A stretch of DNA of 64,000 bases from Escherichia coli. Its GTDB lineage: Bacteria > Pseudomonadota > Gammaproteobacteria > Enterobacterales > Enterobacteriaceae. The stretch lies in the NCBI RefSeq assembly GCF_030013595.1, contig NZ_CP122768.1. The stretch is one strand, 5' to 3'. The notes beneath the pieces were generated by a model. The model saw only the letters and a program-made list of their open reading frames with translations, did not search any database and was not told the DNA's origin. This document shows positions 1,703 to 41,252 of the stretch, in pieces (position 1 is the stretch's first letter; the number at the start of each line of letters is the position of its first letter). The position numbers were made by a program, and so were the translations under genes.

Positions 1703-2275
1703 ATGCGTGGATTACGTCCGGCATTATCGACATTTATCTTTCTGTTATTGATTACTGGCGGCGTTTACCCCCTGCTAACCACCGCGCTGGGGCAATGGTG
1801 GTTTCCCTGGCAGGCCAACGGTTCGTTGATTCGTGAAGGTGATACGGTGCGCGGTTCGGCATTAATTGGGCAGAATTTTACCGGCAACGGCTATTTTCAT
1901 GGTCGCCCGTCGGCAACGGCAGAAATGCCCTATAATCCACAGGCTTCTGGCGGGAGCAATTTGGCGGTCAGTAACCCTGAGCTGGATAAACTAATAGCCG
2001 CACGCGTTGCTGCATTACGGGCCGCTAACCCGGATGCCAGCGCGAGCGTTCCGGTTGAACTGGTGACGGCATCGGCAAGCGGGCTGGACAATAACATCAC
2101 CCCGCAAGCGGCAGCCTGGCAGATCCCACGCGTGGCGAAAGCGCGTAATCTCAGCGTTGAACAGCTCACGCAACTGATCGCAAAATACAGCCAACAACCG
2201 CTGGTGAAATATATCGGCCAGCCGGTCGTCAACATTGTCGAACTCAATCTGGCGCTGGATAAGCTTGATGAATAA
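1703..2275 (+). CDS. kdpC: K+-transporting ATPase subunit C (190 aa)
   Basis: ORF track 1679..2275; start placed at internal ATG 1703 ([15 protein letters not shown]...) by match to KdpC N-terminus; overlaps kdpB stop. Confidence 0.9.
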
Positions 2276-4952
2276 CGAACCCTTACGTCCCGACCCCGAT
2301 CGTCTGCTGGAACAAACTGCCGCGCCGCATCGGGGGAAGCTGAAAGTTTTCTTCGGTGCCTGCGCAGGCGTCGGGAAGACCTGGGCGATGCTGGCAGAAG
2401 CCCAGCGACTGCGGGCGCAAGGGCTGGATATTGTGGTTGGCGTGGTAGAAACCCACGGGCGGAAAGATACCGCCGCAATGCTGGAAGGGCTGGCTGTTCT
2501 GCCGTTAAAACGCCAGGCGTACCGTGGGCGGCACATCAGCGAGTTTGATCTCGATGCCGCCCTCGCCCGCCGTCCGGCACTGATCTTAATGGACGAACTG
2601 GCGCACAGTAATGCGCCAGGTTCTCGTCATCCTAAACGCTGGCAGGACATCGAAGAGCTGCTGGAAGCTGGCATTGATGTTTTCACAACCGTCAACGTTC
2701 AGCATCTGGAAAGTCTGAATGATGTGGTCAGCGGCGTCACCGGAATTCAGGTACGGGAAACCGTGCCCGATCCTTTTTTCGATGCCGCCGACGACGTGGT
2801 GCTGGTGGACTTGCCCCCGGACGATCTGCGTCAACGGCTGAAAGAAGGTAAAGTCTATATTGCCGGGCAGGCGGAACGCGCCATTGAACATTTTTTTCGC
2901 AAAGGCAATCTGATCGCCCTGCGCGAACTGGCACTGCGCCGTACTGCCGATCGCGTAGATGAGCAAATGCGCGCCTGGCGGGGGCATCCTGGCGAAGAGA
3001 AAGTCTGGCACACGCGCGACGCGATCCTTTTATGCATCGGGCATAACACCGGCAGCGAAAAACTGGTCCGCGCGGCGGCGCGGCTGGCGTCACGGCTGGG
3101 TAGCGTCTGGCACGCGGTGTATGTTGAAACCCCTGCCCTGCATCGCTTACCAGAGAAAAAACGTCGGGCAATTCTCAGCGCCTTACGTCTGGCGCAGGAG
3201 CTGGGCGCAGAGACGGCAACACTTTCTGATCCAGCGGAAGAGAAAGCGATAGTGCGTTATGCCCGTGAACATAATCTCGGCAAGATTATTCTCGGTCGCC
3301 CAGCCTCGCGCCGCCGGTGGCGTCGGGAAACGTTTGCTGACCGACTGGCGCGCATCGCCCCCGATCTCGATCAGGTGCTGGTCGCGCTTGATGAACCACC
3401 CGCCCGCACGATAAACAACGCGCCGGATAGCCGCTCTTTTAAAGACAAGTGGCGGGTACAGATTCAGGGATGCGTGGTTGCCGCCGCGTTATGCGCCGTT
3501 ATCACCTTAATTGCCATGCAGTGGCTGATGGCGTTTGATGCCGCCAACCTGGTGATGCTGTACCTACTTGGCGTGGTGGTGGTGGCGCTATTTTATGGAC
3601 GCTGGCCTTCGGTGGTTGCTACCGTCATTAATGTGGTGAGTTTCGATCTCTTTTTTATCGCCCCACGCGGCACGCTCGCCGTCTCTGATGTGCAATATCT
3701 GCTGACCTTCGCGGTGATGTTAACCGTCGGGCTGGTGATCGGGAACCTTACTGCTGGCGTTCGTTATCAGGCGCGGGTAGCCCGTTACCGCGAGCAACGC
3801 ACACGGCACTTATATGAAATGTCGAAAGCTCTGGCGGTGGGCCGCAGTCCGCAGGACATCGCCGCCACCAGCGAACAATTTATTGCCTCCACGTTTCATG
3901 CCCGCAGTCAGGTGTTGTTGCCCGATGACAACGGTAAATTGCAGCCGTTAACACATCCGCAAGGAATGACGCCGTGGGACGATGCCATCGCGCAGTGGAG
4001 TTTTGATAAAGGCCTGCCTGCGGGCGCGGGCACCGACACGTTACCCGGTGTACCGTACCAGATTTTGCCGCTAAAAAGCGGCGAGAAAACCTACGGGCTG
4101 GTGGTGGTGGAACCGGGGAATCTGCGCCAGTTGATGATCCCGGAACAGCAACGCCTGCTGGAGACGTTTACGCTGTTAGTCGCCAATGCCCTTGAGCGGC
4201 TGACACTGACCGCCAGCGAAGAACAGGCGCGGATGGCAAGCGAACGAGAACAGATCCGCAACGCCCTGCTGGCGGCGCTTTCGCATGATTTACGCACGCC
4301 GCTTACGGTGCTGTTCGGTCAGGCAGAAATCTTAACGCTCGATCTGGCGAGCGAAGGATCGCCCCACGCCCGCCAGGCCAGCGAGATTCGTCAGCATGTG
4401 CTGAACACGACCCGACTGGTGAATAATCTACTGGATATGGCGCGAATTCAGTCCGGCGGCTTTAATTTGAAGAAAGAGTGGTTAACGCTGGAAGAAGTGG
4501 TCGGCAGCGCGCTGCAAATGCTGGAACCGGGTTTATCGTCGCCCATCAATCTTTCTCTGCCAGAACCGCTGACCTTAATCCACGTTGACGGGCCACTCTT
4601 TGAACGGGTGCTGATTAATCTGCTGGAGAACGCGGTGAAATACGCGGGGGCGCAGGCCGAAATTGGTATCGATGCCCACGTTGAGGGCGAGAAGCTACAA
4701 CTGGATGTCTGGGATAACGGCCCCGGTCTTCCGCCAGGCCAGGAGCAGACGATATTTGATAAGTTTGCTCGCGGGAATAAAGAGTCGGCGATACCGGGTG
4801 TCGGGCTTGGGCTGGCAATTTGTCGGGCGATTGTGGATGTACACGGCGGCACCATTACCGCGTTCAACCGACCGGAAGGTGGTGCCTGTTTTCGTGTTAC
4901 ACTTCCCCAGCAAACTGCCCCTGAACTTGAAGAATTTCATGAGGATATGTGA
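2268..4952 (+). CDS. kdpD: Sensor histidine kinase KdpD (894 aa)
   Basis: Start at ATG 2268 ([12 protein letters not shown]...) overlapping kdpC stop; Walker-A-like GACAGVGKT, four TM helices, H-box LSHDLRTPL, ATPase G-box [11 protein letters not shown]. Confidence 0.95.
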
Positions 4953-16200: not shown

Positions 16201-16209
16201 TCGCCGTAA
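16201..16209. repeat. Target-site duplication, left copy (TCGCCGTAA)
   Basis: Identical 9-mer directly abuts both ends of the IS. Confidence 0.9.
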
Positions 16210-17266
16210 GGCTTTGTTGAATAAATCGAACTTTTGCTGAGTTGAAGGATCAGATCACGCATCCTCCCGACAACACAGACCATTCCGTGGCAAAGCAAAA
16301 GTTCAGAATCACCAACTGGTCCACCTACAACAAAGCTCTCATCAACCGTGGCTCCCTCACTTTCTGGCTGGATGATGAAGCGATTCAGGCCTGGTATGAG
16401 TCGGCAACGCCTTCATCACGAGGAAGGCCCCAGCGCTATTCTGATCTCGCCATCACCACCGTTCTGGTGATTAAACGCGTATTCCGGCTGACCCTGCGGG
16501 CTGCGCAGGGCTTTATTGATTCCATTTTTTCTCTGATGAACGTTCCGCTACGCTGCCCGGATTACAGCTGTGTCAGCAGGCGGGCAAAGTCGGTTAATGT
16601 CAGTTTCAAAACGCCCACCCGGGGTGAAATCGCACACCTGGTAATTGATTCCACCGGGCTGAAGGTCTTCGGTGAAGGCGAGTGGAAAGTCAAAAAGCAT
16701 GGCCAGGAACGCCGCCGTATCTGGCGTAAGCTGCATCTCGCCGTTGACAGTAAAACACATGAAATCATCTGCGCTGACCTGTCGCTGAACAACGTTACGG
16801 ACTCAGAGGCCTTCCCCGGGTTAATCCGGCAAACCCACCGGAAAATCAGGTCAGCCGCCGCCGATGGCGCTTACGATACCCGGCTATGTCACGATGAACT
16901 GCGGCGTAAGAAAATCAGCGCGCTTATCCCTCCCCGAAAAGGTGCGGGTTACTGGCCCGGTGAATATGCAGACCGTAACCGTGCAGTGGCTAATCAGCGA
17001 ATGACCGGGAGTAATGCGCGGTGGAAATGGACAACAGATTACAACCGTCGCTCGATAGCGGAAACGGCGATGTACCGGGTAAAACAGCTGTTCGGGGGTT
17101 CACTGACGCTGCGTGACTACGATGGTCAGGTTGCGGAGGCTATGGCCCTGGTACGAGCGCTGAACAAAATGACGAAAGCAGGTATGCCTGAAAGCGTGCG
17201 TATTGCCTGAAAACACAACCCGCTACGGGGGAGACTTACCCAAAATCTGATTTATTCAACAAAGCC
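16210..17266 (+). mobile_element. IS903-type insertion sequence (IS5 family), 1057 bp, complete
   Basis: Perfect 18-bp terminal inverted repeats GGCTTTGTTGAATAAATC (16210-16227 and 17249-17266, reverse complement); single transposase ORF; 9-bp flanking direct repeat; length and end sequence match my recollection of IS903. Confidence 0.9.
16287..17210 (+). CDS. IS903-type DDE transposase (about 307 aa from GTG 16287; ORF track gives 322 aa from ATG 16242)
   Basis: Translation ...[36 protein letters not shown]...AADGAYDT... matches the IS903/Tn903 transposase as I recall it; ORF lies wholly within the IRs. Confidence 0.85.
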
Positions 17267-17275
17267 TCGCCGTAA
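17267..17275. repeat. Target-site duplication, right copy (TCGCCGTAA)
   Basis: Identical to 16201-16209. Confidence 0.9.
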
Positions 17276-18218: not shown

Positions 18219-18257
18219 TGCCGGATGCGGCGTAAACGCCTCACCCGGCCTGGTAGA
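18219..18257. repeat. REP (repetitive extragenic palindrome) element
   Basis: TGCCGGATGCGGCGTAAACGCCTCACCCGGCCTGGTAG matches the E. coli REP consensus family. Confidence 0.75.
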
Positions 18258-20093: not shown

Positions 20094-20121
20094 GATGCGA
20101 CGCTCAAGCGTCGCATCAGGC
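20094..20121. repeat. REP-like palindrome
   Basis: GATGCGACGCTCAAGCGTCGCATCAGGC, typical REP-type imperfect palindrome. Confidence 0.65.
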
Positions 20122-20131
20122 ATAAAGCAGA

Positions 20132-29219: not shown

Positions 29220-29267
29220 AATTCTGAATGTGTCGAATAAGTTCGGCAAATTCACAAACCAATTTGT

Positions 29268-29342
29268 TGGGGTATCGCCAAGCGGTAAGGCACCGGATTC
29301 TGATTCCGGCATTCCGAGGTTCGAATCCTCGTACCCCAGCCA
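29268..29342 (+). tRNA. glnV: tRNA-Gln (anticodon CUG)
   Basis: 75-nt Gln tRNA with anticodon loop GGATTCTGATTCC. Confidence 0.93.
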
Positions 29343-29379
29343 ATTTATTCAAGACGCTTACCTTGTAAGTGCACCCAGT

Positions 29380-29454
29380 TGGGGTATCGCCAAGCGGTAA
29401 GGCACCGGATTCTAATTCCGGCATTCCGAGGTTCGAATCCTCGTACCCCAGCCA
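29380..29454 (+). tRNA. glnX: tRNA-Gln with anticodon CUA: amber (UAG) suppressor allele, supE44-type
   Basis: Same sequence as the preceding Gln(CUG) gene except anticodon loop GGATTCTAATTCC; anticodon CTA at 29412-29414. Confidence 0.9.
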
Positions 29455-29461
29455 CATTAAA

Positions 29462-29490
29462 AAAGCTCGCTTCGGCGAGCTTTTTGCTTT
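29462..29490 (+). terminator. Rho-independent terminator of the tRNA operon
   Basis: AGCTCGC-TTCG-GCGAGCT hairpin followed by TTTTT. Confidence 0.8.
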
Positions 29491-29496
29491 TCTGCG

Positions 29497-29607
29497 TTCA
29501 TTCAATGTCGAATGCGATGTTGACACGTCTTATCCTTCAATGTCGGATGCGACGCTGCCGCGTCTTATCCGACCTACGGTTGGCACGCATCCGGCAATGT
29601 TGTAAGG
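29497..29607. repeat. Cluster of REP-like palindromes (BIME-like)
   Basis: Repeated units of the AATGTCGGATGCGACGCTGCCGCGTCTTATCCGACCTAC type, one near-complete and two degenerate. Confidence 0.65.
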
Positions 29608-30783
29608 CTACAACCCTAACGCATATTTCAGCGCCTGACGTTTCAACACGCCAGCACGCTCCGCCGCCATCAAACCAAGATTACGCACAAAACGCAGCGG
29701 CGGCAGATTATTACTGAATCCGGCATAAAACAGATCCATACCGCTCTGCATAATGAAGTTATCCGCCATGCGCCGCATCTGGTAACGCTTGAGGACAGGA
29801 TAACTGGCCCACGCTTCGCCGTAGCTGCGGGCATTCACCAGAACATCAATCAGGGCATCGACATCACGATAACCAAGATTCACCCCCTGCCCCGCCAGCG
29901 GATGGATGGTATGCGCGGCATCGCCCACCAGCGCAAGCCCCGGCTGCACATACTGCAACGCATGGCGACGCGTCAGCGGAAACGCACCAGCGGCAAGCGG
30001 TGTCACGTAACCCAGACGCGACGGGAAATGCTTCGCGATTTCCGCCTGGAGCTGTGCCATATTCATATTCTGCAACTGGCGAATGCGCGCCGGAGAGTCA
30101 TACCACACCAGCGATGCCCAGTTATCAAACAACGGCAGAAACGCACGCGGTCCGTCCGGGGTAAATTGCTGCCAGGTGCTGTCGCCGGGATCGTTCTCAC
30201 ACTGTACGCTAATCAACATACACGACTGTGCATACTGCCAGGCATGAACGCCAATTCCCGCCATCTGCCGCACCTGCGAATTTGCGCCGTCGGCACCAAT
30301 CACCAGCTTCGCGCGGATCGTTTCACCGCCCTTCAGTTCCAGCTCCTGAAGATCATTATGGCGATGCAGCGCAATCAGCGAGCCTGGCACACGTAACGTT
30401 ACTTTCGGATGCGCTTCCAGCGCCTGCCACAGCGCCTGTTGCAGGACAGTGTTTTCCACCATGTAGCCAAGCAACGGTAGCTTAAGTTCAGCGGCGTCAA
30501 ACACCACATGCGCCGTTTCCCACTCCCACGTTTCCAGTCTGCGGTAAGGATGGCAACGCATAGCCTGTACTGCATCCCAGACCCCTAACCCTTTAAGCAA
30601 TGATACCGAAGCCGCACTAATCGCCGAGATCCGCACGTCCGGCTGGCTGTCAGCGACAAACGGTGCAGGTTGGGCATGTTCGATAACCATTACCGAAAAT
30701 CCGTGCTGAGCCAGTCCCAGCGCCAGTGCGCCGCCGACCATTCCTCCGCCGACAATGGCAATTTCCGTTGGTTGATTTGTCAT
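29608..30783 (-). CDS. ubiF: Ubiquinone biosynthesis flavin monooxygenase UbiF (391 aa)
   Basis: ORF track 29608..30789; N-terminal FAD-binding GGGMVGG. Confidence 0.93.
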   Translation of the reverse strand: MTNQPTEIAIVGGGMVGGALALGLAQHGFSVMVIEHAQPAPFVADSQPDVRISAISAASVSLLKGLGVWDAVQAMRCHPYRRLETWEWETAHVVFDAAELKLPLLGYMVENTVLQQALWQALEAHPKVTLRVPGSLIALHRHNDLQELELKGGETIRAKLVIGADGANSQVRQMAGIGVHAWQYAQSCMLISVQCENDPGDSTWQQFTPDGPRAFLPLFDNWASLVWYDSPARIRQLQNMNMAQLQAEIAKHFPSRLGYVTPLAAGAFPLTRRHALQYVQPGLALVGDAAHTIHPLAGQGVNLGYRDVDALIDVLVNARSYGEAWASYPVLKRYQMRRMADNFIMQSGMDLFYAGFSNNLPPLRFVRNLGLMAAERAGVLKRQALKYALGL

Positions 30784-30928
30784 GGTCAATCATCCTGTTA
30801 GCAATATGCTTTAAGTTTACAGGATTTTTACCCCCAAGGGCTGATAACGCTCATACTGGTCACAACGGCAGCAAAGCATTACACTATGCGCCCTGCATTC
30901 CTAGCTACTATTTCGCAAGAGCAAGTCG

Positions 30929-36584: not shown

Positions 36585-36620
36585 TCACCGGATGCGGCAT
36601 CAGTGCGTTATCCGGATAAC
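36585..36620. repeat. REP-like palindrome downstream of lnt (preceded by a hairpin at 36553-36583)
   Basis: CCGGATGCGGCATCAGTGCGTTATCCGG; upstream hairpin GTGCCGGAATAC...GTATTTCGGCAC. Confidence 0.6.
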
Positions 36621-36656: not shown

Positions 36657-36937
36657 TTGTTATACAAGGCAAAGCTTGAACCAGCATCAGTACAACCCGG
36701 TTGCACCACAGCAATCCACGGGTAGCACCAAAAGAGTGCATTTTAAGAATTTTGCTTCGGAATGGTGCGGCGCATCTCGCAAAAACAAACAATAAAACAG
36801 CAATATCTTTACATTTAGCCAAACTAAATGTTACCTAACAGGCACAACACTGCACAATAAAGTTGCAGACGATAACAACACAAACACTCACAACGGGTAT
36901 CCATGCGTTCTTAACGCAGAAGATAAAGGAGTTGGAT

Positions 36938-41214: not shown

Positions 41215-41239
41215 GCCGGATGACATCACGCCATCCGGC
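41215..41239. terminator. Hairpin between convergent rihA and ybeL
   Basis: GCCGGATG-loop-CATCCGGC; no strong T tract. Confidence 0.4.
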
Positions 41240-41252
41240 ACCACTCATTTCA

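Follow-up and report, generated by a model that had tools for sequence, protein, structure and literature searches.

The REPs, or palindromic units, of Escherichia coli, with their y, z1 and z2 types and the BIMEs, were reportedly described by Bachellier et al., and later studies are said to connect REPs with mRNA: Newbury et al. 1987 are named for the malE-malF REP as an mRNA stabiliser, Espeli et al. 2001 for REP-linked attenuation and mRNA stabilisers, and Liang, Rudd and Deutscher 2015 for REPs within 15 nt of the stop codon.

A GTAG tetranucleotide located 5' of the stem foot is a conserved feature of REPs (Ton-Hoang et al. 2012, PMC3333891), and both binding and cleavage by TnpA-REP in vitro depend on this GTAG and on a two-base stem mismatch (PMC3333891). 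About 60% of the E. coli REPs lie between convergent genes, where their presence correlates with higher expression of both genes, and one array, REP325, acts both as a terminator and as an mRNA stabiliser (bioRxiv 10.64898/2026.03.23.713779). For REP-bearing genes genome-wide, the legend to Figure 4G-H of the same preprint (bioRxiv 10.64898/2026.03.23.713779) gives the difference in half-life as not significant; in its supplements, ubiF/glnX occurs in a single row of the expression table and the locus is not listed. The other described system that bears on the locus presented here is supE44 of K-12, which is now assigned to glnX and designated glnX44 according to PMC4444293, where Singaravelan et al. 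2010 is cited for it.

We analysed a stretch of 64,000 nt of E. coli DNA (contig NZ_CP122768.1), hereafter called the window, which is 97-98% identical to MG1655 and is not K-12. Its segment 29497-29607 lies in a gap bounded by the metT-leuW-glnU-glnW-metU-glnV-glnX operon on the + strand and by the stop codon of ubiF on the - strand.

Anatomy and family membership of the repeat cluster

The segment 29497-29607 contains one complete REP, one decayed copy in the same orientation and one inverted half-arm. An earlier, sequence-only reading of this DNA had claimed that the interval from the tRNA terminator to the end of ubiF is occupied by three REP units, two of them degenerate and one nearly complete; the repeats, a strict REP pattern and the comparison to REP consensus sequences confirmed this. 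The complete unit, unit 2 (29542-29577, - strand), was recognised as an inverted repeat, by the strict pattern, by its consensus match and by direct reading. On the - strand, it reads GTAG-GTCGGATAAGACGC-GGCA-GCGTCGCATCCGAC: two arms of 14 nt (29542-29555 and 29560-29573) are paired at 12 of 14 positions around a loop of 4 nt, a central two-base mismatch at stem positions 8-9 sets AA opposite GC, and the GTAG, which appears as CTAC at 29574-29577 on the + strand, is located 5' of the stem foot. The upper stem and the loop are z2-like, whereas the foot is a compensated variant, GTC...GAC, and not GCC...GGC.

Unit 1 (29507-29538, - strand) is a degenerate copy of unit 2 and is defined by a tandem direct repeat of 35 nt (29498-29532 and 29533-29567) whose two halves are 83% identical. 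Both the stem foot and the GTAG are gone from it, and pairing is left in the upper stem only. Since this unit still ends in CCTAC in a cryptic-clade Escherichia strain and in the sequence L022, it represents an old, decayed REP. Unit 3 (29586-29599, + strand), found as an inverted repeat, is an inverted half-REP that comprises the distal arm only (CGCATCCGGCAATG); its 14 nt repeat the left arm of unit 2 in inverted orientation with 86% complementarity, and in E. coli SCPM-O-B-8794 the unit reads CATCCGAC, which is the exact complement of GTCGGATG in unit 2. In MFE folds, unit 3 pairs either with the left arm of unit 2 (+ strand) or with the left arm of unit 1 (- strand). Unit 2 is an imperfect palindrome within the REP size of 30-40 nt; units 1 and 3 taken alone fall short of it, and both lack the GTAG, as do the REP-like sites that start at 18219, 20094 and 36588 of the window.

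MG1655 has 355 annotated REP elements; REP identity was tested here from the sequence, as the copy of NC_000913.3 that was used carries no REP features. The strict REP core pattern (GATGCGNCG...CGNCTTATC) matched the 64 kb only once, at unit 2, and did not match any of 100 shuffled versions. For the consensus comparison, y, z1 and z2 consensus strings were compared using blastn-short plus shuffles; unit 2 agreed with the z2 core consensus in 23 of 24 bases (40.1 bits), the maximum in 30 shuffled windows being 26.3 bits. Taken individually, units 1 and 3 were not significant, unit 3 alone reaching 22.3 bits, i.e. chance level; its conservation in all Escherichia species examined nevertheless makes unit 3 credible. 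The REP325-derived Rfam family naRNA4 (RF02564) gave a sub-threshold match at 29506-29574 with 31.2 bits and E=0.0055, which does not reach the gathering score of 59.5 bits.

These data bear on the view that the cluster consists of chance palindromes, or is merely a part of the terminator, and does not belong to a REP family. In line with such a view, neither unit 1, unit 3 nor the site at 36588 individually exceeds chance in the consensus comparison. Against it, unit 2 fits a strict pattern for which no match was expected, and its 40 bits compare with at most 26 in shuffled windows; the naRNA4 model lends partial support, units 1 and 3 are partial copies of unit 2, and the terminator, 20 nt away, forms a hairpin of its own. 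We regard this view as very improbable for the cluster as a whole, and for unit 2 the strict-pattern and consensus-versus-shuffle tests refute chance palindromes.

Judged by its sequence, unit 2 is a genuine E. coli REP that shows every REP feature tested. With the described y, z1 and z2 units (PMC3333891), it shares the imperfect palindrome of 36 nt, the GTAG and the two-base mismatch, and like other E. coli REPs it has an extragenic 3'UTR position between convergent genes, here with the ubiF stop at 29608 on one side and the end of the glnX terminator at 29485 on the other. The earlier description of the cluster units as typical of E. coli REPs thus agrees with the features and the consensus match of unit 2. 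Unit 2 differs from typical E. coli REPs in its GTC/GAC foot and in combining a y-like stem (CGGAT) with a z2-like top. The layout of BIME-1 and BIME-2, in which a full REP and a full inverted REP alternate with an L or S linker, was not found: the cluster is neither BIME-1 nor BIME-2, since units 1 and 2 are direct instead of alternating and the inverted partner is only a 14-nt half-arm. To REP325/naRNA4 (RF02564; PMC4550694, mBio 2015; bioRxiv 10.64898/2026.03.23.713779) the cluster is similar in having tandem REP hairpins in a 3'UTR, but REP325 consists of twelve alternating z2/y units within an operon, in contrast to three partial units between convergent genes. By its sequence, with only a weak match to the covariance model, the cluster does not qualify as a member of the naRNA4 family. 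Our main reading, to which we assign a probability of roughly 80%, is that the cluster represents the ordinary REPs of the Escherichia glnX-ubiF spacer, i.e. a z2/y-hybrid REP with a decayed copy and a half-arm that together form a partly eroded, atypical BIME.

Single REPs had also been proposed downstream of three other genes of the window. The one in the glnS 3'UTR, previously placed at 18219-18257, was recovered as a y-type single REP at 18219-18256 (- strand) with 30 of 33 bases matching (42.1 bits, E=3e-7); its GTAG position is degenerate (CCTGGTAG on the + strand). After nagE, where a REP had been assigned to 20094-20121, the 3'UTR contains a REP-derived site at 20094-20122 with 32.2 bits. 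The derivation from a REP was therefore upheld, but the site is atypical: a perfect 10-bp palindrome made of two z2 left arms placed head to head, with neither mismatch nor GTAG/CTAC. The REP proposed after lnt (36585-36620) corresponds to a weak, degenerate y-type REP-like palindrome at 36588-36615 (- strand), whose consensus match covers only 11 nt and, with 22.3 bits, is at chance level; direct reading revealed an imperfect palindrome of 12 positions with the typical internal two-base mismatch, and on this sequence we consider the site a plausible degenerate REP.

The repeats as part of the ubiF 3' end

An intrinsic terminator hairpin, putatively common to the tRNA operon (+ strand) and ubiF (- strand), was recognised as an inverted repeat at 29460-29485, 3' of glnX. 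It is formed by a perfect 11-nt inverted repeat, AAAAAGCTCGC-TTCG-GCGAGCTTTTT, with a GC stem (29465-29470 paired to 29475-29480), the loop TTCG, an A6 run on the left and a T5 run on the right, so that a U-tract follows the stem on either strand. The terminator scan called this hairpin on the + strand; on the - strand, where UUUUUU comes after the GC stem, the scan made no call, as it counted the A-U pairs as stem. Given this sequence, the hairpin could terminate transcription in both directions. The repeats lie downstream of the tRNA operon terminator, as the sequence-only reading had stated, and are thus normally outside the tRNA transcript. In the sense of ubiF, they lie upstream of the same hairpin and therefore constitute the 3'UTR of ubiF on the - strand. 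The ubiF stop codon is a UAG at 29608-29610 (- strand; ORF 29608-30789), and ubiF is annotated at the same place in relatives.

The RNA from the ubiF stop codon to the terminator was predicted to fold with -53 kcal/mol (z=-3.9), and none of 200 shuffled sequences folded as well; the + strand RNA of the spacer reached -64.4 kcal/mol (z=-6.7) when compared to shuffles. In the predicted ubiF-sense fold, units 3 and 1 pair to form a helix that encloses the hairpin of unit 2. In the ubiF mRNA, the units would accordingly fold into nested hairpins, the predicted structure beginning 8 nt after the UAG. The likeliest effect of such a structure would be local and modest, on the 3' end of ubiF, for which we see about an even chance. 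It could hold up 3'-to-5' exonucleases as a second obstacle after they have passed the terminator hairpin, or could act as a pause or backup stop for transcription arriving from either side of the convergent junction. As in the described REP stabilisers and attenuators, REP hairpins are found in ubiF just past the stop codon; unlike in those stabilisers, the REPs are not 3'-terminal, since a strong intrinsic terminator lies distal to them. The strong terminator hairpin at the 3' end of ubiF also speaks against a strong stabilising role, as an additional stabiliser may be redundant. A modest RNA role would, we infer, fit the current view of REPs as context-dependent 3'UTR regulators (bioRxiv 10.64898/2026.03.23.713779).

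Conservation and turnover of the spacer

The comparison to the corresponding K-12 region that had been suggested for this locus revealed no differences between the spacer 29455-29607 and MG1655, i.e. REP units were neither gained nor lost; the cluster has its counterpart at 696277-696390 of MG1655. The base at 29414 is the sole difference from MG1655 over 29256-29670, while ubiF differs from that of K-12 MG1655 at 45 of 1,176 nt. Of 5,426 complete E. coli genomes, 5,424 contain the spacer, and in 5,357 of them at least 80% of the query is covered. In divergent haplotypes, changes are found mostly in the loop of unit 2 (TGCC, TGAC, TGAT, TGGC) and in the degenerate units. Among six Escherichia haplotypes, none of the 32 columns of the GTAG and stems of unit 2 was variable, compared to 18 of the remaining 86 columns of the spacer (Fisher p=0.002), and the variable positions of unit 2 were confined to two loop bases. 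In the same six haplotypes, compensatory base-pair changes were not found: the helix of unit 2 is invariant, and substitutions in the outer helix are either one-sided or disrupt pairing. Covariation thus adds no support beyond thermodynamics and invariance, and the invariance of unit 2 could also result from its homogenisation with other copies of the REP.

All three units recur, with unchanged stems of unit 2, in E. albertii, E. whittamii, a divergent E. coli and the cryptic-clade strain MOD1-EC7003; judging from these sequences, the three-unit arrangement is older than the split of the genus. Units 2 and 3 are dispensable, as 44 of the 5,426 E. coli genomes, among them Rb-50 and CE10, have unrelated single-copy sequence in their place. 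In this alternative spacer (Rb-50 extract 1360-1500), unit 1 is kept and is accompanied by about 140 nt that contain a CCCTCTCCCC...GGGGCGAGGGG palindrome. Beyond E. coli, syntenic loci were taken from the control scan with the wild-type tRNA 40-mer. Salmonella enterica subsp. diarizonae and Citrobacter species carry different, z1-like REPs in the gap, and Enterobacter cloacae and three metagenome contigs carry a CCCTCTCCC...GGGAGAGGG palindrome. The element of the 44 E. coli genomes resembles the one at the same position in E. cloacae and these contigs. Across Enterobacterales, the last tRNA-Gln is followed by the terminator, the spacer and the convergent ubiF, and both this order and the terminator hairpin are conserved. 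Since the occupant changes between genera, the gap is probably a permissive landing site and not a device under selection.

These comparisons are central for a serious rival to the RNA-role reading, according to which the cluster is a neutral relic, decaying selfish REP DNA in a permissive gap, with no effect on ubiF or on the tRNA operon. Such neutrality would account for the erosion of two of the three units, for the other REPs or palindromes that other genera have in the gap next to a retained terminator, for the unrelated sequence in the 44 E. coli genomes, and for the lack of covariation, and it agrees with the cited figure legend, in which REPs do not shift mRNA half-lives genome-wide. 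It does not account for the retention of the arrangement since before the Escherichia species split, for the lower variability of the GTAG and stems of unit 2 relative to the surrounding spacer (p=0.002 as above), or for a spacer folding far better than shuffled sequence. We consider neutrality a real possibility, yet one that falls clearly below an even chance.

Alternatively, the primary role of the cluster could be at the level of DNA, as a site for TnpA-REP, DNA gyrase or a nucleoid protein, or as a hotspot for IS insertion. Unit 2 alone has both the GTAG and the mismatched stem that TnpA-REP needs, and a partial inverted unit adjoins it (PMC3333891), so that the earlier idea of REPs as transposase targets is tenable for unit 2 but not for the other units; REPs are, moreover, documented as IS targets according to PMC1525189. 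However, the cluster is not a canonical BIME, as both a full REP/iREP pair and an IHF-site-bearing L linker are missing. Neither an IS nor a rearrangement was found here among the genomes inspected, the spacer length is constant in the 5,357 genomes with at least 80% coverage, and a model REP was described as having no role in nucleoid compaction (bioRxiv 10.64898/2026.03.23.713779). A primary DNA-level role is thus improbable, and a modest RNA role at the 3' end of ubiF is the reading that we prefer. The cluster itself is a textbook repeat of already known biology, at a position where small palindromes are routine in Enterobacteriaceae, and matters little, but the locus offers a clean natural series for REP turnover, with a conserved terminator, an Escherichia-wide array, a different sequence in a minority of E. 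coli genomes and different REPs in Salmonella and Citrobacter.

Elsewhere in the window, a copy of IS903B (IS5 family, 1,057 bp) at 16210-17266 interrupts the chitoporin gene chiP and is flanked by a 9-bp target duplication, TCGCCGTAA, at 16201-16209 and 17267-17275; this insertion is absent from MG1655 and from the nearest pig-isolate relatives. At 41216-41251, the ybeQ-ybeR-djlB-ybeT-ybeU-djlC-hscC segment of MG1655, about 8 kb in length, is missing and rihA is directly followed by ybeL. Between lnt and gltI, at about 36834-36838, the window lacks the IS5D of MG1655.

A suppressor anticodon in glnX

The base 29414 lies 83 bases upstream of the REP cluster within glnX (29380-29454, + strand), the last tRNA gene of the metT-leuW-glnU-glnW-metU-glnV-glnX operon. 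The A at this position gives the anticodon CUA, an amber-suppressor anticodon that had been missed in the sequence-only reading. ARAGORN assigned the anticodon cta to glnX, and the Rfam tRNA model scored 62.4 bits, indicating an intact tRNA-Gln2 body; the gene differs from glnV only at gene position 35. All 75 of its 75 bases are identical to glnX of DH5alpha (extract 386-460), including the G-to-A change that gives CUA. On this sequence, glnX of the window is a supE44-type (glnX44) allele and a predicted amber suppressor. It agrees with supE44 of K-12 in gene, G-to-A change and anticodon, but resides in a non-K-12 haplotype with 45 ubiF differences and with neither IS5D nor the ybeQ-hscC segment.

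An exact 40-mer of the suppressor allele, centred on the anticodon region, was found in 156 of 5,426 complete E. coli genomes. The matches listed, 97 distinct records of the 156, all come from genomes of 4.47-4.83 Mb, mostly with names of K-12 laboratory strains, and five listed records with non-laboratory hosts are identical to MG1655 over 1,534 nt except for this base. Thus, among the listed matches (97/156), the suppressor allele occurs only in K-12-type strains. The same 40-mer had no match in metagenome contigs or in species-representative genomes; since the wild-type controls found only 61 and 68 stretches there, these zeros carry little weight. A PGAP feature covering the suppressor glnX was not present in any of the 97 suppressor genomes listed of the 156, and in six K-12-type suppressor genomes inspected in detail, the operon is annotated with six tRNAs instead of seven; these are DH5alpha and five genomes in whose extracts the gene lies at 1386-1460. 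There is thus a systematic annotation gap for suppressor tRNAs in RefSeq PGAP.

The nearest complete relatives of the window are the UK pig isolates HCP5S3_I2 and LCP30S3_I5, which have the normal G at 29414 and differ from the window by 26 real single-base differences and 2 single-base indels over about 63 kb; a 27th difference, at 17266, turned out to be an artefact of the IS903B junction. The closest relative, contig L152 (GCA_017839865.1), also carries the normal G and differs from the window solely at 29414 over 3.1 kb. As the closest public relatives have G, the A at 29414 is private to this genome, which leaves a recent independent mutation or an error in base calling as its origin. The changes derived in the window have an ordinary mutation spectrum with five G>A, two of them at Dcm CCTGG sites. 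A sequencing error at 29414 may still be involved, given that L152 differs at this base only over 3.1 kb.

The two changes at Dcm sites, both window-derived G>A, are located at 30903 and 36976 and turn CCTGG into CCTAG, the signature of a 5-methylcytosine deamination hotspot; position 30903 is 26 nt upstream of the miaB start codon. A local excess of differences relative to the rest of the window is found in kdpD (2208-4952), where the window and the pig isolate differ at five positions, four of them non-synonymous; the pig isolate has the derived state at three of the five and the window at two.

Contamination with K-12 DNA, or the transfer of a K-12 segment, was considered as a simple source of the CUA and rejected on the grounds of the non-K-12 flanks: ubiF has its 45 differences, and SNPs specific to the window are found on both sides of glnX. 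A conversion tract from K-12 of at most 415 bp may nevertheless be the source, since K-12 and the wild relatives do not otherwise differ over this stretch.

As ubiF ends in UAG, suppression would extend UbiF. The in-frame translation past this codon (29530-29607, - strand) reads PYNIAGCVPTVGRIRRGSVASDIEG and stops at a TAA at 29532-29530. Under suppression with Gln, the extension comprises 26 residues (Q-PYNIAGCVPTVGRIRRGSVASDIEG) and runs through REP units 3 and 2 to the TAA in unit 1. The sequence being identical, the same extension of UbiF is expected in every supE44 laboratory strain. Provided that the A at 29414 is true, the CUA may have arisen independently in a wild-type, pig-associated lineage, in which a fraction of UbiF would carry a 26-residue tail encoded by REPs; we put this at somewhat less than an even chance. 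If true, this would be a natural supE-type suppressor by which REP DNA is exposed to translation. The suppressor allele matters more than the REPs and, if real, would represent a second independent origin of a supE44-type allele outside the K-12 pedigree, which would alter termination at every UAG in this strain, that of ubiF included.
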